Sequence record: KX828710
Length of the DNA: 50,552 nucleotides
Reading direction: 5' to 3' (one strand)
Source of the DNA: Shigella phage SH6
The notes under the pieces were generated by a model. That model was not told the DNA's origin and searched no databases. It saw only the letters and a program-made list of their open reading frames with translations. The translations under genes and the position numbers were made by a program. Shown here piece by piece: positions 30,172 to 50,300 of this stretch (position 1 is its first letter; each line of letters opens with the position of its first letter).

Positions 30172-30173
30172 AA

Positions 30174-30404: not shown

Positions 30405-30433
30405 TTGTATGTCCTCGTCGTTAGTGTGATTGC

Positions 30434-30462
30434 ATTGTATGTCGCATTTACTTTTATTGCAA
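30434..30462 (-). promoter_or_regulatory. sigma70-type promoter for lipoprotein/RBP operon
   Basis: Minus strand TTGCAA-N17-TACAAT about 25 nt upstream of lipoprotein start. Confidence 0.5.
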
Positions 30463-30514
30463 TAGCACGATTACAATTTTTCGTGTAACGGGTGTCTATT
30501 TTTGTAACCGGAGC

Positions 30515-30625
30515 GGGTGTTACAAAATCCACCCCATACGACCGCAGAAGGATATGATAAAAACTCTATATAATATATATAGATAGATAATATTTAATTT
30601 TAGCTTTATATATATAATTATTGTT
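30515..30625. repeat. AT-rich repeat element copy A (GGGTGTTACAAAAT ... AGATAGATAATAT) with GTTACA/TGTAAC iterons nearby
   Basis: Same two core blocks 66 nt apart as in copy B; lies in divergent intergenic region 30405..30929. Confidence 0.6.
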
Positions 30626-30929
30626 GTGTAACAGTTGTCTATCGTGTAACTGGTGATTTGATTGATTCGTCAAATTTCTATCATATATGTTCAAAATTTA
30701 ATCAATATGGATTCTACTTGTAGCTATCTCTGTATTTCTAAGAAAAATCGGTTACAAGTATTACACAGTAGACATCACATAAAAATAGACTTAAGTCATT
30801 GATTCCGTTAATGCTGGTTGTAACTTGAGCGATATAGACACGCTATTACACACCAATTACATGTATCCGATTGACTAAACGCTGTTAATGGCTATAATGG
30901 ATTCATCGTAAACGAAGGAGATAAACGCA

Positions 30930-31994
30930 ATGTTCCAAGTATTCACATCAAGTCAGCTTTCTAATGACGAGTATCATAGCAACGAAGGTTGGGCGGCAGA
31001 GTATGTAAGCGGTTCTAGCCTTGCAGAAATTTATCAGACTTGCCCGGCTAACTGGCGATTCAAGAAGAACGAGACGACTAAAGCGCTGGAGTTTGGTACT
31101 CAGTCGCACACCAACTTTGAGAGCCGAGATCTGTTTACTGCATCGTATGCTCGTTGTCCGGCTCAGGCAGAGTTTAAAGATCTCATTACTTCGCAGGCGG
31201 CGCTGGCAGCAAAATTAAAATCTTTTGGCCTGAAAGGTACATCCGGTAAGCAGTACCCGGACCTCATCAAAATGATGGTTGATTGTGGCGAAGACCTTAA
31301 CGTTCAATACCTGATTGAACTGATCGCAGAGGCTGAGGCGCGCGCTGAAGGAAAGAAACTCGTCGACGCTGATAAATACGACGCCTGCATGAAGATGAGA
31401 GCTATACTTGAACAGAACCCCGATCATGAAGCGTGCATCAACAGCGAAACAGCGCAGCGTGAAATCTCAATCTTCGGTGAAATATCCGGCGTCAAGGTTA
31501 AGGTTCGACTAGATCATCTTGACTACAAAGAGAATGTACCAGGTCGTGTCCTGACTGGTTATGATGAGAATGGAGATCCGGTATTCGAAGATGTTATTTT
31601 CCCTGAAGCACTGATTATCACTGACTTCAAAACAACAATGAGCGCCAACCCGTTAGAGTTCCCGAGACTGGCATACAATCACGGCTATTACCTGAAGATG
31701 GCATTGCAGCATGACCTGCTACGACGCGCAATCCAGGCTGGAGCCTTTGAAGGTAACTTCCCGGAAGATATTCCGATCGTGGTTCGATTGCTTGCGCAGG
31801 AGAAAAAAGAGCCTTATATCGCACTGGCTTACCGTATGACCATGGAGCAAATCAGGATCGGTCGCAACCAGTACATTAGCGTAGTACACACTTACAAGGC
31901 TTGTTCTGAAATGGATGTTTGGCCTGGGTACGCTGGCGACGCAAGCGAGATCGAACTTGAAACGCCATCATGGGTGCGTTACCAAAATAAGTAA
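30930..31994 (+). CDS. PD-(D/E)xK recombination exonuclease (YqaJ/RecE-like)
   Basis: RLDHLD ... IITDFKTT nuclease motifs; upstream of Erf and SSB. Confidence 0.6.
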   Translation: MFQVFTSSQLSNDEYHSNEGWAAEYVSGSSLAEIYQTCPANWRFKKNETTKALEFGTQSHTNFESRDLFTASYARCPAQAEFKDLITSQAALAAKLKSFGLKGTSGKQYPDLIKMMVDCGEDLNVQYLIELIAEAEARAEGKKLVDADKYDACMKMRAILEQNPDHEACINSETAQREISIFGEISGVKVKVRLDHLDYKENVPGRVLTGYDENGDPVFEDVIFPEALIITDFKTTMSANPLEFPRLAYNHGYYLKMALQHDLLRRAIQAGAFEGNFPEDIPIVVRLLAQEKKEPYIALAYRMTMEQIRIGRNQYISVVHTYKACSEMDVWPGYAGDASEIELETPSWVRYQNK

Positions 31995-32068
31995 ACGGCA
32001 CAAATAGCTAAACAAATAATTAATGAGGTGTTATAATGCACCTCATACACCAATCAGGAGAAGCTAAG

Positions 32069-32716
32069 ATGCAATTATCACCAGAAACAAACGAAATCCT
32101 TCCGGCACTGTTCAATGCTCGAAATAAATTCGCAAAAGCAAAGAAAGACGCAAAAAACAATCACCTGAAAAATTCATACGCAACTCTTGATGCAATGATG
32201 GCAGCTGTTAGCCCGGCGCTAACCGACAACGATATTATGATCCTGCAATCAATGCTTGATACAAGCACGGAAACGACCTTCCATCTTGAGACAATGTTGA
32301 TTCATAAATCCGGGCAGTGGGCCAAATTCTTCATGATGATGCCGATTGCAAAACGCGATCCGCAAGGCGTAGGTTCCGCAATGACGTATGCTCGACGTTA
32401 CTCACTCGCTGCGGCGCTGGGGATTAGCCAGAGTGATGACGATGCTCAGCTTGCAGTGAAATCTGTCAAGGACTGGAAAAAAGAACTTGATGCGTGTGAA
32501 GATATCGAATCACTGAAAGAGGTATGGGCTAACGCTTACCGCCAGACGGATACGGCAAGCAAGTCAATAATTCAGGATCACTACAACGCACTTAAGGCTA
32601 AGTTTGAGATCGGTAAAGCTCGTGGTATTCGCCCGGCGCAACCGGAACAGAAAAAACAGGTTGAAGCAACGAGCGCGAAGCCTGTACAATCTCAATCAAT
32701 CACCAACTTCGAATAA
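32069..32716 (+). CDS. erf: Erf-family single-strand annealing protein
   Basis: GSAMTYARRYSLAAALGI core typical of Erf; ATG with AGGAGAAGC RBS. Confidence 0.7.
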   Translation: MQLSPETNEILPALFNARNKFAKAKKDAKNNHLKNSYATLDAMMAAVSPALTDNDIMILQSMLDTSTETTFHLETMLIHKSGQWAKFFMMMPIAKRDPQGVGSAMTYARRYSLAAALGISQSDDDAQLAVKSVKDWKKELDACEDIESLKEVWANAYRQTDTASKSIIQDHYNALKAKFEIGKARGIRPAQPEQKKQVEATSAKPVQSQSITNFE

Positions 32717-32762
32717 TCATCAGGGCGGCTTCGGTCGCCCATAAAATTTAGGAGAGAAAAAC

Positions 32763-33188
32763 ATGCATATTATCACTGGCGAGATCCGTAAAGAACCAAA
32801 GATTCTGGAACGTAACGGAGGAAATACTTATATCATCGAACTGGCAGAAAGCTACAAACCGCGTGATGGCGATCGAGAATACACCAACTACACATTCTTT
32901 TTTAGCGATGGTGGAAAGCCTGGTCTTGCTGACTGGTATCGTGAGGCTTTTCAAGTTGGGCGAGTCGTGTCGGTATCATGCGAAACATTGAAGATCTCAT
33001 CCCGCGAGCATAACGGAACGGTTTACAATTCATTGCAGGCAGCTGACTTCCCTAGACTGGTATTCAGTCAACGTGGTCAAAGTAACCAGCAACAACTAGC
33101 GCATCAGCAACAAAATCAACGATCTCAACATCAACCACAACCGCAACCAAATCCACAATCAACATTTGACGACGATATCCCATTCTAA
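32763..33188 (+). CDS. ssb: single-stranded DNA-binding protein
   Basis: OB-fold-sized N-terminus, Gln/Pro-rich linker and canonical acidic tip FDDDIPF. Confidence 0.75.
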   Translation: MHIITGEIRKEPKILERNGGNTYIIELAESYKPRDGDREYTNYTFFFSDGGKPGLADWYREAFQVGRVVSVSCETLKISSREHNGTVYNSLQAADFPRLVFSQRGQSNQQQLAHQQQNQRSQHQPQPQPNPQSTFDDDIPF

Positions 33189-33193
33189 TTTTC

Positions 33194-33224
33194 AAAAATA
33201 AGGAGCCTTGCGGCTCCTTTTTTA
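33194..33224. terminator. bidirectional terminator between ssb (+) and tail fibre (-)
   Basis: GGAGCC TTGC GGCTCC hairpin flanked by A-run and T-run. Confidence 0.65.
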
Positions 33225-34901
33225 TTTGCTAATCAATTCTGAAACGATAGTTTTAAGCTCCTCCACTTCCTTTTCAAGAGCTGATACCTTATTTGATTTG
33301 TAAACGAATGCGGCGCATAGGTCCATCAACAGTACGTTACTATCAAGAGAAAGTACATCGTCTGTATACCCGATTTCCTTTCGGTCGACTACAACTTCGT
33401 TCCCTTCCTCGTCCACCCCCTTGATGTCCTCATAAATGGCATGACCAGGCAGCAAGTGCACATATTCTGGGTCAATCATCGCAAGATCCTGTGCAATAAG
33501 GCCGTATCGCTGCACGTCAGAATCTTTATACTTAAACATTGCTGGAAGCCATTGACGAACGCGGTTGTAGCTTTCCTCGCCGTCAGTGTATTGGATTTCT
33601 TTCTTAAGGTCGCGGTCAGATAGCGGCGCTTTCTGGAACTCGTTAACCGAAGGGTTGCCGCTGTTACCGCTAATCAGCCTGCCGTCCGGCAGGAAGCGGA
33701 ATAGCGATTCAGTCATACCATTTTTCCACACGTGGATGCGGTAGTCTGACAAGTGGGTGTCCCCTGCACGAACAATTCCTGCGCGGGTCCAGTCTGCATA
33801 CCACCGATGCATTGTCATCCCCACCCAGTTATCTATCCCATACAGCGCGTTTGACAGACTGGTAGAGTTAGCCTCTAAGGCATTTAACACTACTGACTCG
33901 CCGCCATTCAGGTGCAGCGCACCCAACTTAACCAAACTATCATCACCAACTCCAAGATTAGCGCGCGCCGCCGCTGCCGTTGTTGCTGCCGTGCCGCCTT
34001 TTTCGATGGGTACGGTGTTCTCCGTAGATACAGATCCCAGATCAAGATTAGCACGTGCCTCCGATTTATTTTCCAGCCCTGCAAGATTACCATCCTTAGT
34101 TAAAAGATTATCGGCATTAATGCTATTTGCTGCGTCTTTCGCTTCCTGAGCACTTACCGCCGCCGCATCTTTTGAGCTAACCGCATCATTACGCGCCAAC
34201 TGAGCATCGTTTTTTGCAGAGGTTGCTGTTTGCGCTGCCGCTTGAGCGTCGTTAACGTAAACCGACAAATCTCCCTTTGCGTCATTAATTGCCTGAATAG
34301 CCGACGCCTCTTCCGTGTCGATGTGAGAGATGACAGATGATTCCTTAGAGCCGATATCAGTGATAGCCTGATCTTTTGCGGCATTAATGCCACCGATAGC
34401 CCCGTCAACAATATTCTGTGTCTGATTCTTGATTGAGTTAGTTTCATCGCGTGCAGCGTTGGCGGCGTCACGCGCTAATTCAGCCTGATTTTGCGCAGCT
34501 TGAGAATCAGATTTCGCCTGGTTCACATCAGCAACTATTTGCTCAAGTTTATTCATATCAAGCTGATTTATCAGGTCTATAGCTGCCGCGATCTCAGTCT
34601 CTTTGCTTTGATAGTATCGAAGCGTCTCAGCAACGTTTTGCGCAAGCCCGTTAACGGTTAGTGAATCGCTAAGCAAGATCACATACTTTCCGTCAGCTGC
34701 GGTCTGACCATCCGTAGAGATAGCCTTCATTTCCGTATCGCTCACAATATCGCTGATTACCGCCAGCTTAATCGGTTGCTCCAGGAATACGATAGTTGCA
34801 CCGACTCGAATCAAAGCAAGCTGATCTTTCCATTTTGTGTCTGTTCCGTGAACCGTGCCGTCTGCATCCATTGATGCTGTACCGCGTCTATATAAAGCCA
34901 T
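33222..34901 (-). CDS. tail fibre with C-terminal intramolecular chaperone (S74-like) domain
   Basis: Ala/Asp/Asn-rich shaft; C-terminal SDRDLKKEI..GLIAQD.. chaperone-type domain. Confidence 0.7.
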   Translation of the reverse strand: MALYRRGTASMDADGTVHGTDTKWKDQLALIRVGATIVFLEQPIKLAVISDIVSDTEMKAISTDGQTAADGKYVILLSDSLTVNGLAQNVAETLRYYQSKETEIAAAIDLINQLDMNKLEQIVADVNQAKSDSQAAQNQAELARDAANAARDETNSIKNQTQNIVDGAIGGINAAKDQAITDIGSKESSVISHIDTEEASAIQAINDAKGDLSVYVNDAQAAAQTATSAKNDAQLARNDAVSSKDAAAVSAQEAKDAANSINADNLLTKDGNLAGLENKSEARANLDLGSVSTENTVPIEKGGTAATTAAAARANLGVGDDSLVKLGALHLNGGESVVLNALEANSTSLSNALYGIDNWVGMTMHRWYADWTRAGIVRAGDTHLSDYRIHVWKNGMTESLFRFLPDGRLISGNSGNPSVNEFQKAPLSDRDLKKEIQYTDGEESYNRVRQWLPAMFKYKDSDVQRYGLIAQDLAMIDPEYVHLLPGHAIYEDIKGVDEEGNEVVVDRKEIGYTDDVLSLDSNVLLMDLCAAFVYKSNKVSALEKEVEELKTIVSELISK

Positions 34902-34914
34902 AGTATAAACTCCT

Positions 34915-34966
34915 TAAGTAAATAGCACTAATTGCTAAGCACTGATTTTATCATTGTGCTATGAGT
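34915..34966 (-). promoter_or_regulatory. variant cassette upstream of tail fibre gene
   Basis: Minus strand TAGCACAATGATAAAATC then palindrome GTGCTTAGCAATTAGTGCTA; TAAGGAG RBS. Confidence 0.4.
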
Positions 34967-34979
34967 CTTGCAATGGTCA

Positions 34980-35003
34980 ATAAAAAACCGCCCGAAGGCG
35001 GTT
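34980..35003 (-). terminator. rho-independent terminator after primase gene (minus strand)
   Basis: ACCGCC CGAA GGCGGT hairpin preceded on plus strand by A-run. Confidence 0.55.
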
Positions 35004-35937
35004 AGAGTAGGTCGCTTGCTGAGAATAATTTGGCTTGCATTCCTGAGCGGTATCCTCCGGGGTTCGGTATGATTATTTTTAATTGTCTGTCGTCTGCCAT
35101 GTACAAGGTATCCTTGTCTGAAGGTTCGCACGCTACCCTTACCTCTCGATCACCTTTATACCTGTATGCAACAATTTCGAGGTTTTCAGGGGTGAAGCAG
35201 GCCCATACCTCTTGCTTTGTGTGAAATGCAATATGCTGAGCATCAATCCAGTTAAGGCATAAGTAGATCGCCTTTTCAGTTTTACCAGTCACGGCAACCG
35301 AGCAACTCGTGTATTTCTTCGCATAAAATGACTCTCTTCCTTCTTCATCAATAATCAAAATATTGCAAAACTCATCATCAAGCCCATCCTCGTGCACAAG
35401 TTGACACGGTATAGTGTGAAATACACTCTCTCTTCCATCCTCGCTACGCTTTATACCGACATCGAATGATTCGGTGGGTAGTGACTCAAACACGCTCAAC
35501 GGCGTATTTATACGTTTCTCTGTACGCTCCATAACCTTCATCACCGCCTCATGTTCAGCCATCATGACATTGACACCTGACACCGGAGTCCGGCGCGCTT
35601 TCTTGTTTGCCTTGACGATGTATTCCTGCGGAACCTTTCCGAGAAATCTTCCCAAGATGTTTACGCATTCGCTGTACGGCATACCAGTCAACTTCATCAG
35701 CCAGCCAATACCAGAGTCGTTACCGCATGAGTTGCAGATCGCGCCGCCGTCGCCCGGAGTGTTCAGGTTATCAGTCCAGCGAAAACGGTCTTTACCTCCG
35801 CAGTTGGGGCAAGGTTGGTGCTTCTTATTAAAAACATCATTCGGCAATCCGCAGATTGATTGGAAAGCCTCGCGCCATAACCCCTTCATGTACGGTAAAA
35901 CGTCCTCTTTCTGAAACATCATAAATTCTTCGTTCAC
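35002..35937 (-). CDS. DNA primase (zinc-ribbon type, putative)
   Basis: CPNCGG...CNSCG zinc ribbon near N-terminus; replication module context; GTG start. Confidence 0.55.
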   Translation of the reverse strand: MNEEFMMFQKEDVLPYMKGLWREAFQSICGLPNDVFNKKHQPCPNCGGKDRFRWTDNLNTPGDGGAICNSCGNDSGIGWLMKLTGMPYSECVNILGRFLGKVPQEYIVKANKKARRTPVSGVNVMMAEHEAVMKVMERTEKRINTPLSVFESLPTESFDVGIKRSEDGRESVFHTIPCQLVHEDGLDDEFCNILIIDEEGRESFYAKKYTSCSVAVTGKTEKAIYLCLNWIDAQHIAFHTKQEVWACFTPENLEIVAYRYKGDREVRVACEPSDKDTLYMADDRQLKIIIPNPGGYRSGMQAKLFSASDLL

Positions 35938-35949
35938 TTCCAGATCTCC

Positions 35950-35990
35950 AAAATAAAAAACGCGTAGAAGGATGTTAACCCGCTACGCGT
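35950..35990 (-). terminator. terminator-like hairpin after Cro-like gene (minus strand)
   Basis: ACGCGTAG...CTACGCGT inverted repeat with A-run on plus strand. Confidence 0.45.
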
Positions 35991-35998
35991 CGTTTGTT

Positions 35999-36451
35999 TT
36001 AACTAAAAATGCTATTGGTCGTTCCGATATCTTCCTTCTTCACGACGCGCATAAATTTCTTGTTCTTGCATCGCTTCTCAAGGCACTTGCCGTTACCGTC
36101 AAACTTCAGGTCGAATCGCAACCATGCGGCGCGAAATCCTTTGCACCCCTGTCGGCGGTAAGCACGATGCGCAGCTTCAGCACCTTGCCATGAAATCATA
36201 TTGCGTTCTTTCCAGCCCTGCACCGTCTGATTGCTAACCTTCAGAGCCTTTGCGCAGGCCGCCGGGCCGCCGTAATATTCGATAAGGGCATCAAGTCGCG
36301 CTCGCAGTCCGGCGCGCGTTTCTTCTTTATGAATATAGAAGCCGCAGCGCTGTCGTGGCTTTTTGTCTTTACCGCGTCGTGTTCCGTTGTTACCATTGAT
36401 GTGACGTTTATCGATTTCACCAGTTGACTCCGCGATACGTTGAATACTCAT
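35999..36451 (-). CDS. Cro/YdaS-like HTH DNA-binding protein
   Basis: ACAKALKVSNQTVQGWKERNMISWQGAEAAHRA..LRFD matches YdaS/Cro-type HTH; divergent from helicase gene. Confidence 0.55.
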   Translation of the reverse strand: MSIQRIAESTGEIDKRHINGNNGTRRGKDKKPRQRCGFYIHKEETRAGLRARLDALIEYYGGPAACAKALKVSNQTVQGWKERNMISWQGAEAAHRAYRRQGCKGFRAAWLRFDLKFDGNGKCLEKRCKNKKFMRVVKKEDIGTTNSIFS

Positions 36452-36464
36452 CTTGATTCTCCTA

Positions 36465-36507
36465 TAGCACTTTTTGCTAAAAACGTTTACTGTATGCCGT
36501 GTATTAT
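36465..36507 (+). promoter_or_regulatory. intergenic cassette upstream of helicase gene
   Basis: TAGCACTTTTTGCTAAAAAC; TATTAT at +22 in hairpin CGTTTAC/GTAAACG. Confidence 0.5.
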
Positions 36508-36516
36508 AGCGTAAAC
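36484..36516. promoter_or_regulatory. divergent overlapping -10 elements in hairpin between Cro-like gene and helicase gene
   Basis: Inverted repeat CGTTTAC..GTAAACG with central TATTATA: TATTAT on plus, TATAAT on minus. Confidence 0.45.
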
Positions 36517-36544
36517 GTTACAACGATTCAAAGGATTAATAGAC

Positions 36545-38563
36545 GTGACAATGAACATTAAAAAGCAGATTGCATTACTTGGCGAGGACTACATAAAGCG
36601 AACTCAGGAGCGATTTACTGTTGGTGAGGTTATTCCTTATCCGTACCAGGTTGTTGCTTATGCTGAGATCGCGAAACGCCTATCAAATTACGAGCATCCA
36701 TTCTTTGTTAAAGCGTCGGTGTCTGCGGGTAAGACCATCATTTTTGCTATGGTTGCAAAGCAGTGTCAGAAAATGGGCTTAAAAATGCTTGTGCTGGCCC
36801 GTCAGGGTGAGATTGTCGATCAGGATAGCGAAGAGATCGACAACTTCGGCGTTACTAACTCAATATTCTCAGCCTCATTAGGTATTAAGTCCTGCTATTT
36901 TCCGATCGTGGTAGGCTCCGAGGGTACGGTTGCAAATGGCCTCGACAATGAGCTTGCTGATTTCGTCCCGCATGTAATTGGGATCGACGAATGTCACCAG
37001 GTGGATTGGGAAGACCTTGCGCAAGCCATTGAGGGCAAGGAAACAATGGAACAAATGAGGGGCGAGAAGGGAAAAATCATCATGGATGGAGATATTCCCA
37101 TGATTGGTAATGATGGAAAACCTTTGTTTGGGACTAAGCGCAGTCAGTACACGATCGTAATCATGGAAATGATGCGGCGCTGTAAAAAGGTTCACGGTCA
37201 CGATCTCAGAATATTTGGTATGACTGGATCTGAATTTCGTGGCGTAGTTCCTATTCTGGTAGAGAATCCGAAAGCATTGGGATTCTGGCGTGAGCGAGTA
37301 ACTGATATCGACACAAACTATCTGATTGAGTTCGGTTCTGTTGTGCCGACAATATTCGGTTCAACAGACGGAGTTCATTACGATCTGGATAAGTTCAAGG
37401 CGTCGAGCGAGGACGGAGTGCAGGACTTTACAGAGAAAGACATGAAGGCTATGGAAGATGAGATCCTTCATGATAAATCTCTTACTCAGCGAATCATGCA
37501 AATGGTTGCCAAAAAGGCTGAAGAGCGTAACGCGGTACTGATTACATGTGCTGGTGTGCGCCACTGCAAAGAGGCAGCGGCAGCACTTCCTCCGGGAAGC
37601 ACCTATGCAATTATTACTGGCGACACAGACAACAAAACGCGCAAGAAGATTCTTGACGATGTAAGGGCCGGAAAAATTAAATACACCTTTCAGGTAATGG
37701 CGCTCACTACTGGCGTTAACGTTCCAAATTGGGATTTCAGTGTCATACTCCGCAAGATAGGGTCGCTCACGCTGTTGATTCAACTCTTGGGTAGGGGTAT
37801 GCGTCTGCTTAAATCCTGGCAGGTTGCTGAGGGAATGGTTAAGCAGGACCATCTGGTATGGGATTTCGCAGGTACGATGGATGAGTTGGGTCAGCTTTAT
37901 TTCGATCCGATACTTGAGCAGGCGCAATTCCAAAAGCGTTTCGAAAACGGCAAAGATCCGAAAACATGTCCGAAATGCGGTTGCGTAAATAGCTTCTATG
38001 CTCGACGATGCGTTAATGTCATTGATGGTGAGCGTTGCGATCATTTCTGGACTTCTCAGATTTGTGAGGACCAGGTTGACGAGCGCACCGGAAAAATCCT
38101 TGTTAAAGGATGCGGCGCAGAGAATGACGTTGTGGCCCGAGTCTGTCGTTGCTGTGATGTTTCGCTTGTCGATCCTAACCTGAAGTTATCCGGTAAGGCG
38201 TACACTAAGAATGACTGGTATGAAGTAAAGAATTTTGAGGTTACGCTAACCAAAAACCAGAAAGGCATAATATACAAATACACTCTTATTAACGATGATG
38301 GTGATGAGTTCAAGGCGTATGAAAAATTCTTCCCCGAGTCTGACTCTAAGATTTGCGGTACGCTATGGAAAACTAAAGGTGTATTGCCACACGTATCAGA
38401 TCCTAAAATGCGCCGATACTTTATCGGAATGAAGAGCGCCATCAAGATTTTGCAATACTCACATCATATTGCTCACCCGGTGCGCGTAACTCATCGTCGC
38501 AACCAGAAGAAAGAAGATATTATCTCACGAAAAGACTTTGGTATGGAGGATATCCCGGAATGA
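36545..38563 (+). CDS. ATP-dependent DNA helicase (DEAD/DEAH-box superfamily 2) with C-terminal zinc ribbons
   Basis: Walker A SAGKTIIF, DECH box, CPKCGC..C..C and CGAEN..CRCC clusters. Confidence 0.75.
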   Translation: MTMNIKKQIALLGEDYIKRTQERFTVGEVIPYPYQVVAYAEIAKRLSNYEHPFFVKASVSAGKTIIFAMVAKQCQKMGLKMLVLARQGEIVDQDSEEIDNFGVTNSIFSASLGIKSCYFPIVVGSEGTVANGLDNELADFVPHVIGIDECHQVDWEDLAQAIEGKETMEQMRGEKGKIIMDGDIPMIGNDGKPLFGTKRSQYTIVIMEMMRRCKKVHGHDLRIFGMTGSEFRGVVPILVENPKALGFWRERVTDIDTNYLIEFGSVVPTIFGSTDGVHYDLDKFKASSEDGVQDFTEKDMKAMEDEILHDKSLTQRIMQMVAKKAEERNAVLITCAGVRHCKEAAAALPPGSTYAIITGDTDNKTRKKILDDVRAGKIKYTFQVMALTTGVNVPNWDFSVILRKIGSLTLLIQLLGRGMRLLKSWQVAEGMVKQDHLVWDFAGTMDELGQLYFDPILEQAQFQKRFENGKDPKTCPKCGCVNSFYARRCVNVIDGERCDHFWTSQICEDQVDERTGKILVKGCGAENDVVARVCRCCDVSLVDPNLKLSGKAYTKNDWYEVKNFEVTLTKNQKGIIYKYTLINDDGDEFKAYEKFFPESDSKICGTLWKTKGVLPHVSDPKMRRYFIGMKSAIKILQYSHHIAHPVRVTHRRNQKKEDIISRKDFGMEDIPE

Positions 38564-43470: not shown

Positions 43471-43684
43471 ATGCATCAGCCCACATGTAACTTTCGTTCG
43501 TGAGTTTTGCGTATTCGCGAACTTCAATCTCGCAGGTGTCGCCGTACATCTCAGCGACCTTCTTCTCGTTCGCTACCGCCGTTTCTTCATTCCATCCATC
43601 AGCCTTGTTGTAAAGGGTAGGAATCTCACTGCTAGTGCCGTTAGAGTGGTTGTAAACGCGAACTACTAAAAATTTGTTAGCCAT
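43469..43684 (-). CDS. hypothetical protein (71 aa)
   Basis: Internal ATG of track ORF 43469..43810 with GAAGGAAAGC RBS and cassette upstream. Confidence 0.5.
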   Translation of the reverse strand: MANKFLVVRVYNHSNGTSSEIPTLYNKADGWNEETAVANEKKVAEMYGDTCEIEVREYAKLTNESYMWADA

Positions 43685-43721
43685 GATGCTTTCCTTCAGG
43701 TCGTTTCGTTTCGATGAAACA

Positions 43722-43765
43722 AATATACCCGATACGAGATCGGGTGTTTTAACAAAAAGTGCTAT
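43722..43765 (-). promoter_or_regulatory. intergenic cassette (minus orientation) upstream of 43469..43684
   Basis: Minus strand ATAGCACTTTTTGTTAAAAC; TATATT at +22; CATCGAAACGA leader. Confidence 0.5.
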
Positions 43766-43873
43766 TTGTATCTTTTGACATGGAGAAGCAACTCCCCCTC
43801 CTGGTCGCAAAGATTATGCTCACTGTCGCCGCTGGCCCTCATTGAAGTGAGCAGCAGGCTCAACAATCCTTGT

Positions 43874-44281
43874 TCAAATTCTTCTTTCGTAAGCTGGAGT
43901 CTTGCGCACAATTCGACGTTCCGATCTATCAACGTTTCTACGTTCGCCAAACAAGTCTTCATCACTCATTTCTCCAATGTGCATCATTTCCCACGTATAT
44001 CGATTGTTGTAGCCATCAATACACATCAGCTTCATCATTACCGGGCGCTTGATCTTTCCCTTGCACCAGTAAAACCCATCCCTGCAATCAAGATAACCCT
44101 CAGTTACACAGCGTGAGCAAAACTCCTTAGATAGCGCGCTTGTAAATTCACGGCGAGTCATTCCGGCGGCCTTAGCAAATCGCTCACTTTCCTTGTGGGC
44201 GTATATAAATTTCGCTATGTGCTGTCGCGTGTATTTGTCGTAACCTTCGCAGAACCTGAAAAGATCTAAAAGAAGAAGCAT
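43874..44281 (-). CDS. hypothetical Cys-rich protein (135 aa)
   Basis: ORF track; CSRCVTEGYLDCRDGFYWC cluster; coupled to upstream gene. Confidence 0.5.
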   Translation of the reverse strand: MLLLLDLFRFCEGYDKYTRQHIAKFIYAHKESERFAKAAGMTRREFTSALSKEFCSRCVTEGYLDCRDGFYWCKGKIKRPVMMKLMCIDGYNNRYTWEMMHIGEMSDEDLFGERRNVDRSERRIVRKTPAYERRI

Positions 44282-44285
44282 ATCA

Positions 44286-45857
44286 TTAACCCATCAGTCG
44301 AGGATTGATGAAAACAATATCATCAATACGGCAAGTGTAGTTCATCTCTTCGAGCGTGATCAGCAGGCTGTCGATTCGCTCAGATACTTTCTGCTGACCG
44401 TTGAACGGCGTAACGTTCCGGCACTTTGCAACAATACTATGAATAGGTGCGCGGCCTTTGTTCTTCTTCGCGATCTCAGTGATAACATCAATCAGCTTAC
44501 GAGATTCAGCCTCATCACCAGCATACCCGGCAGCGCTGGCAGACGACAGATAAGTCCTGGAAAGCTCATTGAAAATCATGATTGCTTCCTGCATTGTTTC
44601 AAGGTCAATCTCACGGTTGGAACGGTTCGGTGATTCACCCTCCCAATTCTTGATCGTGTGGAGAACTGAAGCAATACGCAAGGCATGCTTATCGAACTTG
44701 CCTAGATGACCGCGTAGCATTGAGTGAGAGTATTTTCCCCCGGCTGCGAAATCCGGCTCCATCGCCTGACGCGCAAGGTTTAATTCACGCATAGCATTGC
44801 GGCTTACAGAGAGAACAATGTTATCCTCCTTCATAATGTTGTGCACGAGTCGATAATATTTACTCACCAACCCTCGATCGACTTCCTTATACAGCGCATC
44901 ACCATTTTCATCGCAAAGAATACGAGTACCTAAAAGCGGTTCCTCGCGAACCAGGAGGAAACGCTCAGATACACCGATGCCGCGCTGGCCTGCGTCCATG
45001 ATACCCTTGATTGTTTCATCCTGCGCAATGACGCAGATCGAACCGACTGGGCAAAGAGATAAGTTGTTGTCCTGATTTGAACGCGCAACCTCCATATGGT
45101 TTTTATCCCACGCCTTGAGGATAAGCTCGCTGTTTGATTTCTTATCAGAGCCGCCATAAGTCAGGCCAAGCAATGTATTTATTGCCGTTGCCTCATCAGA
45201 GATTACTGAGAAATGACCTTGAACAGCGGCTACTTTCGCAAGACCTTCCGGTGTAGGATCTGATACCGCAAAAACAATATCAGCCATCTTCTTGATCTTC
45301 TCTTCAAGTTTTTCCTTGTCCTCGTAGAGCGCCGCCGTCGTGTTACCCTTCGGATCGTTTTTGATTTCCTTCTCGACCTGACGTAGCTGACTGGTTAAAC
45401 GGATGCGCTCCTTTTTTCGCTCTTCATTCAGCCGCTGAATCTCCGCACGCATAGGTGTAATCGCCGCTGAGTTAATCGCCGATTTACCTGTTGAAGGTGG
45501 CTGGCTAATCACCATATAAAGAGCGGTCGGCTGCTCTTCTCCGTGATATTGCACCCAAAACTTCCCGAGCATCGCGGCTGAGATGCACCCAATGAAATGA
45601 GCGTACGCAGACGAAACAGGGAACTGTACAGACTCAGCCTTTGCTTTTGCATATTCGAATACCAGGTTATCGCCACCTAACGAAATCAGCGGGAACTTAT
45701 CGTTTCCACTGTTGATATCGATCGGATCTTGCCAAAACGAAACTGAATCCCCATAGCTGTTTTCACGAATTGCGATCGCCACCGGATTAACTCCAGTGCT
45801 ATTTGCGATCTCAATAATCTGTTGGTAATTCAGTTTTGGCTTAATATTAAACATCAC
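44286..45857 (-). CDS. P-loop NTPase, putative replication-associated protein
   Basis: Walker A-like QPPSTGKSA; 523 aa; cassette upstream. Confidence 0.5.
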   Translation of the reverse strand: MMFNIKPKLNYQQIIEIANSTGVNPVAIAIRENSYGDSVSFWQDPIDINSGNDKFPLISLGGDNLVFEYAKAKAESVQFPVSSAYAHFIGCISAAMLGKFWVQYHGEEQPTALYMVISQPPSTGKSAINSAAITPMRAEIQRLNEERKKERIRLTSQLRQVEKEIKNDPKGNTTAALYEDKEKLEEKIKKMADIVFAVSDPTPEGLAKVAAVQGHFSVISDEATAINTLLGLTYGGSDKKSNSELILKAWDKNHMEVARSNQDNNLSLCPVGSICVIAQDETIKGIMDAGQRGIGVSERFLLVREEPLLGTRILCDENGDALYKEVDRGLVSKYYRLVHNIMKEDNIVLSVSRNAMRELNLARQAMEPDFAAGGKYSHSMLRGHLGKFDKHALRIASVLHTIKNWEGESPNRSNREIDLETMQEAIMIFNELSRTYLSSASAAGYAGDEAESRKLIDVITEIAKKNKGRAPIHSIVAKCRNVTPFNGQQKVSERIDSLLITLEEMNYTCRIDDIVFINPRLMG

Positions 45858-45884
45858 AATAAACTCCTTAGTTGACGGTGTGAA

Positions 45885-45927
45885 TGATACACCGCCAATG
45901 GTACACGCGTTTTACAAAAAGTGCTAT
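45885..45927 (-). promoter_or_regulatory. intergenic cassette (minus) upstream of 44286..45857
   Basis: Minus strand ATAGCACTTTTTGTAAAAC; TATCAT at +22; AAGGAG RBS. Confidence 0.5.
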
Positions 45928-45930
45928 TGG

Positions 45931-46356
45931 TTATAAGTATTTGGCCTCAAAGGTTGTGCCGTCTGCGATACTAAAACCCACCTCTTCGCGGAATAAGGTC
46001 CAGCGGCATCCGTCCTCATCAAAGATGTAACCAGCTACGCCGCCAAGAGCGCGACCGCTTTCTACCTGGTAACGCTTTCCAACCTTGAATGATTTTTTCA
46101 TCGGGTTGCGATGGTCAAGTCCGGTGCACTTGAGCGTCTTTGTTTTCAACTCGGTGAACTTCGCGAAGAAGATTTCATCAGATCCGTGAATATGTAATTC
46201 ATCATGCTTTTCAAGTTTTAAATACTTCCCGCACTTTAACTTTACTTCGCGAGTACCATCATAGCGCTCACGACCTTTATACAGATTGTTTACTTCGAAT
46301 CCTGTGATTTTGTCTGCGGAAGTGCATTTCAGTTTGATTGATTTCATTGCATTCAC
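45931..46356 (-). CDS. hypothetical protein with two KC..F.V..Y repeats
   Basis: IKLKCTSADKITGFEVNNLY and KTLKCTGL..FKVGKRYQV repeats. Confidence 0.5.
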   Translation of the reverse strand: MNAMKSIKLKCTSADKITGFEVNNLYKGRERYDGTREVKLKCGKYLKLEKHDELHIHGSDEIFFAKFTELKTKTLKCTGLDHRNPMKKSFKVGKRYQVESGRALGGVAGYIFDEDGCRWTLFREEVGFSIADGTTFEAKYL

Positions 46357-46383
46357 TCCTGATTGGTTATCTTGAATAAGGCC

Positions 46384-46427
46384 ACTTTATCAAATGACCT
46401 TACGGCAATATTAACAAATCGTGCTAT
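46384..46427 (-). promoter_or_regulatory. intergenic cassette (minus) upstream of 45931..46356
   Basis: Minus strand ATAGCACGATTTGTTAA; TGaTAAAGT at +22; CCAATCAGGAG RBS. Confidence 0.5.
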
Positions 46428-46637
46428 TTACCAGGGAATGTAATCGTCGTCATTATCATCAATATCATCGCCGGGCATCTCAAAGTTAGGATCGTACTCG
46501 CTTTCAGTATCCATATCCATATCACCAAGAGCCTCATCAAGTGTTATTTCTTTATATGCGACCTTGATGCACCACTCGGCACTAAGCCCGGCATCAAGTG
46601 CTGCAAAATAACGAGTCCAGAAATTATCTTGTTCCAT
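46428..46637 (-). CDS. small highly acidic protein with SSB-tail-like C-terminus
   Basis: 69 aa, C-terminus ..DDIDDNDDDYIPW resembling SSB tip DDDIPF. Confidence 0.5.
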   Translation of the reverse strand: MEQDNFWTRYFAALDAGLSAEWCIKVAYKEITLDEALGDMDMDTESEYDPNFEMPGDDIDDNDDDYIPW

Positions 46638-46640
46638 TAA

Positions 46641-46865
46641 TTAGCTCCACGAATTAATGTAAATCGAGTTAGCCTCAAGCGTTGCACGAACATCCGCATC
46701 TGTTGCATTTATCAGTAGAGAGCCTGGCACGCTTCCGATAACACTATTTCCGTTACGTGTCTTAGTTACCGTCATTGAAATAAAGCCTGAAGACTTATCC
46801 ATCTTGATAACGACGCGGCCTTTCGCGTTCAGGTGCTTGATGATATTCTCAACTTTAATGCTCAT
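46641..46865 (-). CDS. hypothetical protein (74 aa)
   Basis: Internal ATG of track ORF 46641..46910; cassette upstream. Confidence 0.5.
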   Translation of the reverse strand: MSIKVENIIKHLNAKGRVVIKMDKSSGFISMTVTKTRNGNSVIGSVPGSLLINATDADVRATLEANSIYINSWS

Positions 46866-46899
46866 TTTTAATTCCTTTATTTCGTTTGGTGTGGGAGTA

Positions 46900-46946
46900 A
46901 TATATATCACTCCCGATCGTATGTCTTTAGCAATTCGTGCTATTAG
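46900..46946 (-). promoter_or_regulatory. intergenic cassette (minus) upstream of 46641..46865
   Basis: Minus strand TAGCACGAATTGCTAAAG; A/T-rich -10-like TATATA at about +22. Confidence 0.45.
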
Positions 46947-47086
46947 TACTCAGAAATTACCTTGCACTCCTTGATAGTGCCGCCGAGAACTACCTTTTGC
47001 ATCATTGCTTTTTGATGGCTATCGTAAACACGAACATTTTTTACACTGTTAAATTTACCCGTATAGAAAGTGTGAATATAAATCAT
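46943..47086 (-). CDS. possible small protein (47 aa)
   Basis: Own translation MIYIHTFYTGKFNSVKNVRVYDSHQKAMMQKVVLGGTIKECKVISEY; ATGA overlap with upstream gene. Confidence 0.3.
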   Translation of the reverse strand: MIYIHTFYTGKFNSVKNVRVYDSHQKAMMQKVVLGGTIKECKVISEY

Positions 47087-47403
47087 TTTTTGCCGTCCCA
47101 AGTTTGATACGCCGTCACCAGGTTAATACTATGATTGAACTCATCAATGCTAAGAGATCCGATTCGAACCAGTTCTTTGTTATGCTTGATATCAATCATC
47201 CGGCTATATGGATGGCCTGGCAAATACTTGAACAGTCGCTTGCTGTCGGCAATATCTGCGTTGATTCCGTAGAATCGACCCACCGCCGCCTTAACGCGCT
47301 CCATGATGTTTTTTTCGTGGATTGCTGCCGCGTTATTCAGTGCCACAACCGTGCTTCCGTTAATCTTCGGTGACTTCGTTGTGATTTTGTAAGTGTGGTT
47401 CAT
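47083..47403 (-). CDS. hypothetical protein (106 aa)
   Basis: ORF track; GGAGGA RBS. Confidence 0.5.
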   Translation of the reverse strand: MNHTYKITTKSPKINGSTVVALNNAAAIHEKNIMERVKAAVGRFYGINADIADSKRLFKYLPGHPYSRMIDIKHNKELVRIGSLSIDEFNHSINLVTAYQTWDGKK

Positions 47404-47418
47404 TATTCCTCCAACCAG

Positions 47419-47619
47419 TCAGGATAGCTTTCTCGCTTCATCAATGATAACAGGCTCGAGACGCTCAAGTCGAACGCGGAATGTGTTCATAAATCCCTCG
47501 TTGTTCTTAAGTAGTTCGAATGCGTCTGTAGCTTCAATGGCGCTACCACCCATATAGGCAATTACTTTTTTCTGAGTCTTACGTGAGATCGCCACTACGC
47601 GGTAAATATTATCACTCAT
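47419..47619 (-). CDS. hypothetical protein (66 aa)
   Basis: Internal ATG of track ORF 47419..47637 with AGAGG RBS. Confidence 0.5.
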   Translation of the reverse strand: MSDNIYRVVAISRKTQKKVIAYMGGSAIEATDAFELLKNNEGFMNTFRVRLERLEPVIIDEARKLS

Positions 47620-47983
47620 ACAATGCCTCTTTAACACGATCCGCTACACATGAGTTAACGGTGATTGAATAGTTAGCCACGCCCCATAATGCAATATTGC
47701 CAAGCTCGGTACGCATTGATGGATTGTTTAGCTGAATGATTGTCTCGCCAGTATCTTTATCGACGAAGCGAGACACGCCAGAATGGTCAACCACGCGCGT
47801 TACGCGGTTAACACACTCCATTGCATCACTTACACCGTAATAAGCGCTTAGGGCGGCTCTCACAGCCTTCTCTTGCTTGTTGTAAATCTTGCGCGCGATG
47901 CTCTCGATCGCAACGTGCTCTTTCTCGTCAGTCTGAATTGCAGTGCTGGCTGAGAAGTCCAGGTCAGTGAACTGATTAAGCAT
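47612..47983 (-). CDS. hypothetical protein (123 aa)
   Basis: Internal ATG of track ORF 47612..48007 with GAGGG RBS. Confidence 0.5.
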   Translation of the reverse strand: MLNQFTDLDFSASTAIQTDEKEHVAIESIARKIYNKQEKAVRAALSAYYGVSDAMECVNRVTRVVDHSGVSRFVDKDTGETIIQLNNPSMRTELGNIALWGVANYSITVNSCVADRVKEALYE

Positions 47984-47987
47984 ATAA

Positions 47988-48218
47988 TTACCCTCTGAAA
48001 CTATCAATAGTGTCGTTGATGTATTTCACTTGCGCCTCTACGTCAGACGTGGCGATGTACTGGAATGTATCGTAATCCTCCCGCAAGTCCACAAGCTCGA
48101 CCTTAGTATGATGCTCTTTAAGCCCTCCCATGTGACCGTAATGTGTGCGGTAGACAATGAATCCCTCGTCATTGGCGCGCTGGATTGCTTTCTTTAATCC
48201 AGGGTGTTTGATTGCCAT
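47988..48218 (-). CDS. hypothetical protein (76 aa)
   Basis: ORF track; cassette and CAGGAG RBS upstream. Confidence 0.5.
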   Translation of the reverse strand: MAIKHPGLKKAIQRANDEGFIVYRTHYGHMGGLKEHHTKVELVDLREDYDTFQYIATSDVEAQVKYINDTIDSFRG

Positions 48219-48250
48219 ATGGTGATTCTCCTGATTGGTTGATGTTGTTT

Positions 48251-48296
48251 ACTATACCCCGATTCCCTTCGGGGCGTTTAGCAATTCGTGCTATTA
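48251..48296 (-). promoter_or_regulatory. intergenic cassette (minus) upstream of 47988..48218
   Basis: Minus strand TAGCACGAATTGCTAAAC; TATAGT at +22 in CCCCGAAGGG hairpin. Confidence 0.5.
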
Positions 48297-48629
48297 ATCG
48301 ATATCGAACTCAGCGGCATATGCTTTCTTGAAGCCAGCTTCACGCATGGTGCGCTTGCTGATTTTTCGCGGGAATTTGTAATGACTGTTAGGTTTAACCC
48401 ACCAGAAGCAGGCAGTCTCGCGAACAATTTCATATTTACCGTAACGGGTGAAGATGTCACGTTCATCGTCAGGCTGGTTAACACAGGTAAGGAATTTAGC
48501 TGCTTTGTCTTCAGTTTTGATTTCTTCCCATACGAAAGAATCCATACCGTTAACCTTGCAAGCTACCATGATGTACTCAACGCCGTTTTCGATTTTGATG
48601 ATTTCGTTACCGCGATTTTCGTATTTCAT
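48294..48629 (-). CDS. hypothetical protein (111 aa)
   Basis: Internal ATG of track ORF 48294..48701 with CAGGAG RBS; cassette upstream. Confidence 0.5.
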   Translation of the reverse strand: MKYENRGNEIIKIENGVEYIMVACKVNGMDSFVWEEIKTEDKAAKFLTCVNQPDDERDIFTRYGKYEIVRETACFWWVKPNSHYKFPRKISKRTMREAGFKKAYAAEFDID

Positions 48630-48667
48630 TTCCCTACTCCTGATGTGTATCTCGTTTCGATGAAGTA

Positions 48668-48711
48668 ATAATGCCAGATTCCATTCCGGCAGTTTTAACA
48701 AAAAGTGCTAT
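48668..48711 (-). promoter_or_regulatory. intergenic cassette (minus) upstream of 48294..48629
   Basis: ~60 nt near-identical to plus-strand cassette at 38974..39035. Confidence 0.5.
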
Positions 48712-48897
48712 TTAGAATTTTACTTCCTCAACAAGCTCAACCTTTTTGCACCCCAGGCGATAGGAGTCGCCGAACAACAATAACCCCATAAATTCATCTT
48801 TGGTTATTGACTCCTTACCAACTGTTCTAAGCTCTCCGTTGTGAACTACAGTATCGCCGATCTTGATTTCTGATTTATGCACTAATTTCGTTTTCAT
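48712..48897 (-). CDS. hypothetical protein (61 aa)
   Basis: ORF track; coupled to upstream gene. Confidence 0.45.
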   Translation of the reverse strand: MKTKLVHKSEIKIGDTVVHNGELRTVGKESITKDEFMGLLLFGDSYRLGCKKVELVEEVKF

Positions 48898-48912
48898 TTG
48901 CTAGCCCGTTAA

Positions 48913-49098
48913 TTAAAAGAATGCTACATAGTTTGCAATGCCTTTGGCGTCGTCGTTAGGCATTGCTTTGACAGCAAGGTCGTAACCCGCTTCTACCTTT
49001 TGCTTTGCTGATTCTTCGTTGTACCCACAAATAACCAGAATTTTAACTACGTTTTCTTTGTTCAGAACTTTAAGGTCTTTAGTGATGCGACGTGCCAT
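48913..49098 (-). CDS. hypothetical protein (61 aa)
   Basis: Internal ATG of track ORF 48913..49113; cassette upstream. Confidence 0.45.
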   Translation of the reverse strand: MARRITKDLKVLNKENVVKILVICGYNEESAKQKVEAGYDLAVKAMPNDDAKGIANYVAFF

Positions 49099-49131
49099 TT
49101 TGTTTTTCCTCAATCTCGTTTCGATGAGGTA

Positions 49132-49175
49132 ATTATGCCAAATCGCACCGATCTGGTTTTAACAAAAAGTGCTAT
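49132..49175 (-). promoter_or_regulatory. intergenic cassette (minus) upstream of 48913..49098
   Basis: Minus strand ATAGCACTTTTTGTTAAAAC; CATAAT at +22; CATCGAAACGAGA leader. Confidence 0.5.
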
Positions 49176-49863
49176 TTGCGATCGCTTTGAAAAATCCACG
49201 CGGCGACAGGGATCGTATCAGCTTCGTTTTGGCAGACTTGCCGCCTAACTTGCTGTGCTGCGCAGAGTACCCGTCAGGCAGGTTTACAGGTTTTCTTTCC
49301 GGCATAACGAAGTCGTCAGAGGTCCACAGACAAGTTTTCTTAGGGTAAGCATCGCGCGGCGCAATATACATCGGGAACCAGGGATGAGCGTCATTCTCCG
49401 GAAGATAGCCGCCATACTCCCAGGGATTGAAGGAGTGATTTGGTTTTCTCCATGCAGACGACAGGACGCTCACCGGATTCTCAATGATGTAAGTCACGCC
49501 CAGTGCGTCGCCAATGTTCGCAGCAATCCTTGCGGTGGCAACAGCCTTCTCCTGGAATAACGGATCGCGCTCACGCTTACTTGCAAAGTGACTAGCACCA
49601 CTAACAGCCAGGTCAGTGCATGGAGGAAAGGCCATGATGAAATCCGGCTTGCCATACACACCAGCGATAGCATCACGTTCGAACTTCTCATCAATGAAGA
49701 CGTTCACATACTCAATGTTCGGATGCTCTACCCTGGCGTTATACTTCGCATAATCTCCGTGATCGGCTCCGTCAAAGTTGAAGCACATCACCTTATGACC
49801 TTGCCTTGCCAGTTCATGACCAGCAAGACCGGAACCGTCGAATAGCGACCAAATTAATTTCAT
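49159..49863 (-). CDS. compact DNA (cytosine-5)-methyltransferase-like protein
   Basis: Motif I LFDGSG, motif IV FPPCTD, motif VI IIENPV in canonical order; only 234 aa. Confidence 0.5.
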   Translation of the reverse strand: MKLIWSLFDGSGLAGHELARQGHKVMCFNFDGADHGDYAKYNARVEHPNIEYVNVFIDEKFERDAIAGVYGKPDFIMAFPPCTDLAVSGASHFASKRERDPLFQEKAVATARIAANIGDALGVTYIIENPVSVLSSAWRKPNHSFNPWEYGGYLPENDAHPWFPMYIAPRDAYPKKTCLWTSDDFVMPERKPVNLPDGYSAQHSKLGGKSAKTKLIRSLSPRGFFKAIANSTFC

Positions 49864-49897
49864 CGTGACTCCCTCTTCTGATTGGTTTATGGCCCGA

Positions 49898-49941
49898 ACT
49901 ATACCCTGACAACTTGGTCAAGTCGTTAGCAAAAAATGCTA
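49898..49941 (-). promoter_or_regulatory. intergenic cassette (minus) upstream of C5-MTase-like gene
   Basis: Minus strand TAGCATTTTTTGCTAACGAC (perfect palindrome); TATAGT ~23 nt downstream. Confidence 0.5.
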
Positions 49942-50192
49942 TTCCAATAATTGCTCATTATTCCATCAATAATGGAATAGGTGGAATAATTTTGATTGCG
50001 ATTGATTGCAAATGATGAAACGTGATTATTGCATGATGTGCAACGGTTGGTTGATTTGTTGCTGAGAATGCAATGATTGCGAGAGGGGGGATCTAGTGTT
50101 ACCCGGTTCGCCTGGTGGTCATCTCCATTCTTAGCAAAACGTGCTATTCGTCTATGCGGTAGTTGTAATTGTCGTAATAGTTGTATACCATC

Positions 50193-50300
50193 AGGGGTGT
50201 TACAAAATGGCCCGAGAATCGATAGGCCTATAGATAATAAAATATCTATATATAATAATAAGATAGATAATATATATTTATTTATTTATTATATTATATA
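50193..50300. repeat. AT-rich repeat element copy B (GGGTGTTACAAAAT ... AGATAGATAATAT)
   Basis: Direct repeat of copy A; lies in divergent region between leftward block and early region. Confidence 0.6.

Follow-up and report, generated by a model that had tools for sequence, protein, structure and literature searches.

Two Repeat-Flanked AT-Rich Modules as Candidate Replication Origins of Shigella Phage SH6 and Other T1-like Phages

The genome of Shigella phage SH6 (sequence record KX828710), a stretch of 50,552 nucleotides analysed at full length and called the window here, carries two oriented copies of a repeat module of about 290 bp, one in each of its two long non-coding regions, regA and regB (Table 1). 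Each copy consists of a direct triplet of short repeats, a conserved box, an AT-rich core, a second direct triplet, an inverted triplet and a promoter, in that order. The same layout is found at the same two sites in phages T1 and TLS and in about 90 distinct elements from related phage contigs, and the feature is strongly non-random and conserved. In the best reading, with a probability of about 0.45, the modules serve as paired replication origins of the iteron/AT-rich type and at the same time as control sites of the early promoters beside them. Origin and regulatory roles are not mutually exclusive.

T1 is one of the original T phages, and its family, the Drexlerviridae, includes common contaminants and candidates for phage therapy. 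No replication origin is defined for this family in the searchable literature. A reannotation of TLS found no iterons anywhere in that genome (PMC11447400), and an oriC-like sequence was sought in SU57 with no origin found (PMC7718038); beyond these two papers, the searchable literature yielded nothing on origins, iterons or transcription start sites of the T1 family. The identification of the modules in this family, as two syntenic copies of fixed geometry, appears to be new; the kind of element is familiar, and an earlier mention is possible. As two short, precisely bounded and conserved targets, the modules make the origin question directly testable. If they are regulatory instead, they would be the control sites of the family's early promoters and would point to a DNA-binding protein with lineage-dependent specificity.

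The Two Modules in the SH6 Genome

The window is a complete, circularly permuted Tunavirus genome (T1-like, Drexlerviridae), collinear with T1 (AY216660). The closest relative is phage DELF2, with ~93% identity across 90% of the 20.5-kb segment compared. The original prediction, made from the letters of the sequence, had singled out regA and regB as the only long non-coding stretches, as dividers of divergent transcription units and as very AT-rich DNA. All three descriptions hold in the window: every other gap is 164 nt or shorter, the gene strands on both flanks diverge, and only two 60-nt stretches with at least 83% A+T occur, one in each region. T1 has a third such stretch, at 8046, beyond its two module cores. 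Another divergent gap, at 36452-36544, is only 93 nt long. Divergent transcription is not essential to the module, as the copy on the recE side of TLS lies between two genes on the same strand. The two intergenic regions would persist in a tightly packed genome because the modules sit there.

The ten repeat and box positions have the same offsets from the first repeat in both copies: 0, 9, 18-19, 35, 143, 152, 161, 267, 276 and 285. Overall the copies are ~59% identical, and the stretches between the right and distal arrays look essentially unalignable. Two words are shared, the 14-mer GGGTGTTACAAAAT, found in the window only at 30515 and 50195, and the 13-mer AGATAGATAATAT, found only at 30581 and 50261. 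They lie 66 nt apart, start to start, in both regions, just as had been predicted. For 2000 simulated pairs of regA and regB (first-order Markov), the longest common word had a mean length of 9.7 nt and was at least 13 nt long in 1.2%, a figure that refers to one shared word and does not require a second at matching spacing.

The repeats belong to a degenerate family of 6-mers, TGTAAC and TGTCTA in regA and TGTAAT, CGTAAT, TGTATA and TGCAAC in regB, arranged in three phased triplets. GTTACA had been proposed as the repeat itself, which is too narrow; the several copies of GTTACA/TGTAAC reported with it are there. This 6-mer occurs at chance level window-wide; of its 25 copies, regA holds 7 within 525 nt (Poisson P 1.3e-8) and regB holds 3 (P 0.005). 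The tandem repeat placed at about 50158-50184 corresponds to the left array of regB, three units with a 9-bp period. When the whole set is counted (TGTAAC, TGTCTA, TGTAAT, CGTAAT, TGCAAC, TGTATA and their complements), regA has 15 members where 1.6 are expected (P 1.5e-10) and regB has 14 where 2.1 are expected (P 4e-8), P values that are inflated because the motif set was picked after the regions had been viewed. Iteron origins require at least three direct repeats in helical phase, and all four direct triplets have this arrangement, with a period of 9-10 bp.

Distribution in Related Phages

Comparison loci were taken from IMG/VR, 45 around homologues of exoVIII (42-100% identical) and 77 around the DUF3987 helicase. 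The complete genomes compared were those of the window, T1 and TLS; the other loci are partial contigs. One site lies upstream of recE-erf-ssb and the other upstream of the fast-evolving first gene, the homologue of gp1 (a working name for the first + strand gene of the window, 6-581). Of the 45 exoVIII loci, 43 have an AT core of at least 83% A+T at positions -328 to -389 relative to the start codon of recE; one of the two exceptions has a weaker core (77%) and the other a core at -162. Helicase loci (21 kb) that reach far enough usually show one AT peak, 3.6-6.2 kb upstream of the helicase gene and 5' of the gp1 homologue, and three of these loci have no AT peak at the threshold of at least 83%. 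T1 and TLS, the latter from a different subfamily, each have both copies of the module.

Nearly all elements share one order: phased direct repeats, a box ending in ...AAAAT, an AT core opening with TATAAT, phased direct repeats again, about 100 bp that are G+T-rich on the + strand, a box of the GAAAAAT type, inverted repeats and the promoter. The regA box GGGTGTTACAAAAT is the counterpart of the ...ACAAAAT / GGCGTAAAAT box of other lineages. While the layout is constant, the repeat varies by lineage: TGTAAC/TGTCTA, TGTAAT, TGTTCAC, CGTTTC, TGTTAT, or TGTGG together with GGTAAGATT. The spacing from left to right array is ~134 or ~143-144 bp in most elements, values about one repeat unit apart, and several elements fall outside them. 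In three comparisons, copies were slightly closer to the other copy of their own genome or lineage than to copies of other lineages (0.59-0.64 identity, a small margin); the single best match of the copy winA is a copy from another lineage.

Among tunaviruses the two sites differ in how widely the SH6 version is shared. The regA core is >90% identical in all ~62 tunavirus records, and the regB version of the window is found in only four other phages (DELF2, Chapo, AV106 and phiL). T1 and the common tunavirus type have an equivalent AT core at the regB site, with repeat variants of their own. A search for regA outside phages, in 5,426 E. coli genomes and the PLSDB plasmids, gave no match. A 25-mer core pattern had no match in GTDB genomes, and a 16-mer core pattern gave mostly chance matches in IMG/VR. 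In a distant relative (L045, ~2140-2235, upstream of exoVIII) the AT core lies between a C-rich and a G-rich inverted repeat (CCTCCCCTCCCCC ... GGGGAGGGG), an arrangement not seen elsewhere.

The AT-Rich Core

The core is the least variable part of regA. In 13 tunaviruses 0-4% of its columns vary, against 64% in the adjoining spacer. Two motifs of the modules are oriented: among 90 elements, 58 have TATAAT on the + strand (27 expected, shuffle maximum 38) and 27, the chance level, have it on the - strand, and the IHF consensus WATCAANNNNTTR is present on the + strand in 20 of 90 (1.4 expected) and on the - strand in none, counts that are not independent trials since the elements are related by descent. 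No IHF consensus was seen by eye in either copy of the window. The case for the cores as unwinding elements is one of composition, as they are the only 60-nt windows of such A+T content in the genome; their sequence conservation hints at more than a passive element. A cruciform or hairpin in the core was considered and rejected, since DNA folding gave z scores of -0.8 to +1.0 against shuffles (one of the four sequences was the L045 stretch outside its core).

Replication Proteins and Candidate Binding Proteins

Several genes of the window encode likely partners of an origin. There is a DUF3987 helicase (Pfam 1e-42), a type described as a replicative helicase related to MCM and carrying a winged helix at its C terminus (PMC4889955). 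The primase is homologous to the primase domain of the P4 alpha protein (tblastn 4e-10 and 6e-12), and the SSB and recombination genes lie directly downstream of regA. The protein encoded at 36545-38563 (+), beside the primase, is annotated as a 'DNA helicase', and its best model is the repair helicase RadD/YejH (2e-59, well below the curated cut-off of 720 bits). Since this protein is RadD-like, of the repair type, the DUF3987 protein is the more likely replicative helicase.

Four proteins are candidate binders of the repeats and are not ranked here: a predicted winged-helix protein (43874-44281), the C-terminal winged helix of the helicase, a 141-aa protein (45931-46356) and the Cro-like protein (35999-36451). 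The gene of the first, a 135-aa protein on the - strand, starts 4 nt past the stop of the DUF3987 helicase gene. Residues 1-75 are predicted to form a winged-helix fold with predicted local distance difference test (pLDDT) values of 80-91; the whole-model mean is 66.6, with an unreliable C-terminal half and an alignment of 11 sequences. Its fold matches are generic winged-helix proteins only (IclR, MarR and Sso10a types, E of 0.2 or more). No link of the Cro-like protein to the repeats was found. The promoter region of its own gene has no lineage-specific iterons and carries a family-wide 21-nt ATAGCAC...TTGnTAAAA element. The gp1 protein was also considered as a regA binder and rejected: gp1 tracks the regB type, yet regA is constant where gp1 differs (L033/L034 versus L124/L081), so that the covariation of gp1 and regB is explained by physical linkage. 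No match to the C-terminal DNA-binding domain of P4 alpha was found.

Possible Functions of the Modules

The original prediction offered a replication origin or a regulator-bound control region; all findings fit this pair, and the computation does not separate its two members. In the textbook layout of an iteron origin, phased repeats enclose the most AT-rich DNA, as they do here. A constant layout with lineage-specific repeats is the pattern expected of sites bound by a phage-encoded protein, and, together with helical phasing and fixed geometry, it points to a cooperative binding site for such a protein. As origins that also control promoters, the modules might work as follows. A sequence-specific phage protein would coat the phased 6-bp repeats on both sides of the core, IHF would bend the core in many lineages, and the core would melt. 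The DUF3987 helicase (MCM-like, superfamily 6) and the P4-alpha-type primase would then be loaded at the melted core. The inverted triplet, 124 bp downstream and beside the sigma-70 promoter, would couple occupancy by the protein to expression of recE-erf-ssb at regA and of the first rightward gene at regB. Protein binding, melting, helicase loading and the role in replication are all deduced from sequence.

A number of observations weigh against a replication role. Neither copy adjoins the helicase gene, which is 4 kb from regB and 13 kb from regA. Exact DnaA boxes are absent from regA and regB. GATC is depleted rather than clustered, with none in regA and one in regB against 4.7 per kb genome-wide. 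GC skew tracks gene orientation only and is therefore uninformative on origins. The helicase was rejected as a homologue of P4 alpha, the DUF3987 profile having aligned with the Walker A motif only (hhalign probability 0.2). Covariation does not separate the candidate binders: the DUF3987 helicase and the 135-aa, 141-aa and Cro-like proteins of the window match those of T1 at 96-99% identity, and they are also near-identical in genome pairs with differing regB repeats. The strict, oriented conservation of the core suggests more than a simple unwinding element would need, and the TATAAT on the + strand would fit a promoter or specific binding site at least as well. The limits given above on the repeat-set P values and on the counts among related elements belong here too.

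The main rival reading, possible but less probable than that of origins, is that the modules are purely transcriptional control hubs without a role in replication. The arrays would be multi-operator sites of a phage repressor or activator timing the recE-erf-ssb and gp1 promoters, possibly with looping between direct and inverted arrays, and the core would serve either as an upstream element, bent or bound by IHF, or as a weak promoter that has a -10 hexamer only. Such hubs would account for the constant orientation of the module relative to a strong rightward sigma-70 promoter ~300 bp downstream, for a TATAAT kept on the + strand only and at a fixed position, and for a core conserved in sequence beyond its composition; IHF sites are also common in complex promoters. 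In both copies, moreover, the inverted triplet and further iteron-like sites extend to the -35 hexamer of that promoter, and this, with the oriented conservation of the core, would fit a control hub about as well as it fits an origin. Yet sigma-70-like hexamer pairs (16-18 bp spacing) are no commoner than in shuffles (4 versus 4.1 in regA, 3 versus 3.3 in regB), and the strong matches are the separate recE and gp1 promoters, outside the cores. Among the elements inspected by eye, none has a -35 hexamer to partner the TATAAT of its core. The operons downstream are already served by near-consensus promoters of their own, and an AT-richest core with phased direct repeats on either side is a classic origin layout rather than an operator layout.

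The remaining explanations are much less probable. Repeats flanking a bent, IHF-type core also occur at P1 pac and lambda cosB, and by this resemblance the modules could be pac or other sites of DNA-end processing, with the small terminase subunit bound to repeats on either side of a bendable core. Position 1 of the GenBank record, in T1 as in TLS, also falls within the counterpart of regB. A role in packaging or end processing is nevertheless very unlikely. T1 reportedly packages from a single pac site, and a single site has been described for TLS (PMC11447400), against two module copies ~20 kb apart. The regB repeats differ between T1 and the window though the small terminase subunit is 98% identical, and the better pac candidate is another conserved stretch, left of the regB module (~49980-50095). 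A small RNA or peptide as the product of the modules is, if anything, a shade less credible; one candidate is the 46-aa open reading frame CPTT1_049, annotated in AY216660 at the place homologous to regA. That frame is open in 13 tunaviruses and regB has a terminator-like hairpin (50390-50411), but no Rfam family matched at the gathering score in the whole window, RNA folding of both strands gave z scores of -0.1 to +0.3 against shuffles, and no equivalent frame was seen in other genera, where no systematic test was made. Changes in the frame are mostly non-synonymous, its start is TTG, and it overlaps the inverted repeats. AT-rich DNA does share words readily, and the 1.2% of simulated pairs with a common word of at least 13 nt leaves some room for a non-functional duplication or chance similarity in AT-rich spacer. 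The comparative data already contradict this last possibility: the two copies agree at all ten points of their geometry, both sites are recurrent, the repeats are lineage-specific and the core is strongly conserved.

Flanking Genes and Other Elements

The coordinates of both modules and their surroundings are collected in Table 1. A TTGACT...TATAAT-type pair at the position of the recE promoter was also seen by eye in other genera.

Table 1. Features of the regA and regB regions of Shigella phage SH6 (window coordinates)
Feature	Position	Strand	Description
regA	30405-30929		525 nt; flanked by cor-type lipoprotein gene (-) and recE(exoVIII)-erf-ssb operon (+)
regA left array	30484..30508	+	direct iterons TGTAAC (30484), TGTCTA (30493), TGTAAC (30503); spacing 9, 10 bp
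regA box GGGTGTTACAAAAT	30515..30528	+	includes one inverted iteron GTTACA (30519-30524)
regA AT core	30552..30620	+	holds TATAAT 30569-30574 and AGATAGATAATAT 30581-30593
regA right array	30627..30650	+	TGTAAC (30627), TGTCTA (30636), TGTAAC (30645); 143 bp from left-array start
regA distal array	30740..30774	-	AAGAAAAATC, then inverted GTTACA (30751), ATTACA (30760), TAGACA (30769); 124 bp from right-array start to inverted triplet
Further iteron-like sites directly 5' of recE promoter	30819..30861	.	TGTAAC 30819, TAGACA 30835, ATTACA 30845 and 30856
recE-erf-ssb sigma-70 promoter	30871..30898	+	TTGACT, 16-nt spacer, TATAAT; 11/12
regB	49864-50552 plus bases 1-5		689 nt to 50552; flanked by Dam-like methylase gene (-) and gp1 (6-581, +)
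regB left array	50164..50187	+	TGTAAT (50164), CGTAAT (50173), TGTATA (50182); spacing 9, 9 bp
regB box GGGTGTTACAAAAT	50195..50208	+	inverted iteron GTTACA 50199-50204
regB AT core	50229..50302	+	holds TATAAT 50251-50256 and AGATAGATAATAT 50261-50273
regB right array	50307..50330	+	TGTAAT (50307), CGTAAT (50316), TGCAAC (50325); 143 bp from left-array start
regB distal array	50420..50454	-	AGAAAAAGTC, then inverted GTTGCA (50431), GTTGCA (50440), GTTACA (50449); 124 bp from right-array start to inverted triplet
Iteron-like sites around gp1 promoter	50474..50542	.	TAGACA 50474, TGTAAC 50502, TAGACA 50537
gp1 sigma-70 promoter	50480-50509	+	TTGACA, 18-nt spacer, TAACAT; 10/12

The frame CPTT1_049 (30110-30250 in T1, L004) corresponds to window positions ~30662-30802 and, given its start codon, its pattern of change and its overlap with the inverted repeats, is probably not a gene.

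The regB region also carries elements outside the repeat module. The terminator-like hairpin at 50390-50411 (+) is followed by a T run and lies between the right and distal arrays; it has no counterpart in regA and seems, by eye, to be weaker in DELF2. The left part of regB (49864-50147, especially 49980-50095) is non-coding, with an abundance of TGCAA/GATTG repeats. Most other tunaviruses share this portion of regB and no other, and in many records the match (84-93% identity) is confined to query bases 1-284. A query with the whole of regB matched 188 records, 125 of them from Klebsiella phage, a count in which the part matched is not distinguished. The T1 and TLS records begin within the equivalent of the 49980-50095 stretch.

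Gene cassettes on both sides of regB (6-1559 and 47988-49863) have no detectable counterpart in T1, which places regB in the most mosaic part of the genome. The left cassette includes a second methylase, Dam-like, at 49159-49863. Homologues of gp1 are found at 539-1114 in T1 (L004, orf77) and 589-1038 in TLS (L050, gp01), and form a syntenic, family-wide and very fast-evolving protein family. The T1 and window proteins are 28% identical, against 96-99% for the replication proteins of the two phages. The protein has a patch rich in Lys and Arg and is without known function.

Comparison with Known Systems

A different repeat of T1-like phages, an intergenic direct repeat of 21 nt (aaATAGCACnnnTTGnTAAAA), has been described (PMC11447400). 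Like the modules it is intergenic and general in these phages, and one copy (50129-50147, -) abuts the regB module. In contrast to the modules, the 21-nt repeat (ATAGCACnnnTTGnTAAAA) occurs as dispersed single copies with a sequence conserved across genera, forms no arrays and does not flank AT cores. Its 19-nt core ATAGCACNNNTTGNTAAAA occurs 26 times in the window (0.15 expected), never within the arrays or AT cores; examples are 820-838 (+), 36464-36482 (+), 49157-49175 (-) and the copy beside regB. Nearly all copies run along transcription, and two are opposed to it in the late + strand region (15764-15782 and 19529-19547, both -). Across the genera examined, the copy in the gap between the Cro-like and helicase genes precedes a conserved TATTATA by ~22 nt, an arrangement suggestive of a non-canonical promoter.

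Iteron-type origins include those of the Staphylococcus aureus pathogenicity islands and phage-inducible chromosomal islands (SaPI/PICI), lambda, pSC101 and R6K. As in the SaPI/PICI ori, and more loosely in the other three, phased short direct repeats surround the most AT-rich DNA of the replicon. Other shared traits are an IHF-type site in or near the AT stretch (in many lineages of the module), inverted copies beside a promoter, as in Rep autoregulation, and lineage-specific repeats. Unlike those origins, the module occurs twice per genome with neither copy in or beside an identified initiator gene, its repeats are degenerate and only 6 bp long, there are no DnaA boxes, and the core contains an oriented, conserved TATAAT.

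Two origins per genome are known from the Bacillus phage SPP1, a virulent siphophage with pac-type headful packaging, whose dispersed oriL and oriR contain repeats and AT-rich DNA. Binding of G38P has been demonstrated there by experiment. The modules resemble oriL and oriR as two dispersed copies of repeats plus AT-rich DNA in a pac-type siphophage, without any relationship in sequence or protein, and oriL, unlike either module, lies within the initiator gene. In T4 oriF and oriG and in the primary origin of T7, a promoter precedes an AT-rich unwinding element, and oriF is located at uvsY. The conserved -10 hexamer at the upstream edge of the AT core and the position of regA before recombination genes are reminiscent of these origins. 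Their makeup does not include the flanking repeat arrays, however, and the TATAAT of the module is a putative promoter element known from sequence.

The ori/crr system of the satellite phage P4 offers a further likeness: its record shows two separated cis elements with phased direct and inverted arrays of one short repeat around AT-rich DNA, and the alpha primase-helicase binds both. Each complete genome compared here also has two cis sites, and each site recurs in the partial contigs. The type-1 repeat of P4, TGTTCACC, shares the 7-mer TGTTCAC with the repeat of TLS-type relatives, and homology links the T1-family primase to the primase domain of alpha. In contrast to P4, the repeats of the window are TGTAAC/TGTCTA/TGTAAT and its modules lack TGTTCACC arrays; the primase and helicase are separate genes, and the DUF3987 helicase has no detectable homology to alpha beyond Walker A. 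The likeness is one of analogy only. Extended from P4, it would give a bipartite Drexlerviridae origin, in which one phage winged-helix protein binds both copies, perhaps pairing them across 20 kb in the manner of P4 ori and crr, fires replication and switches the recE-erf-ssb and gp1 promoters. This is rather improbable. If true, T1 and its relatives would have their first defined origin, and its layout of direct triplet, core, direct triplet and inverted triplet at fixed spacing would be one not described for other origins.

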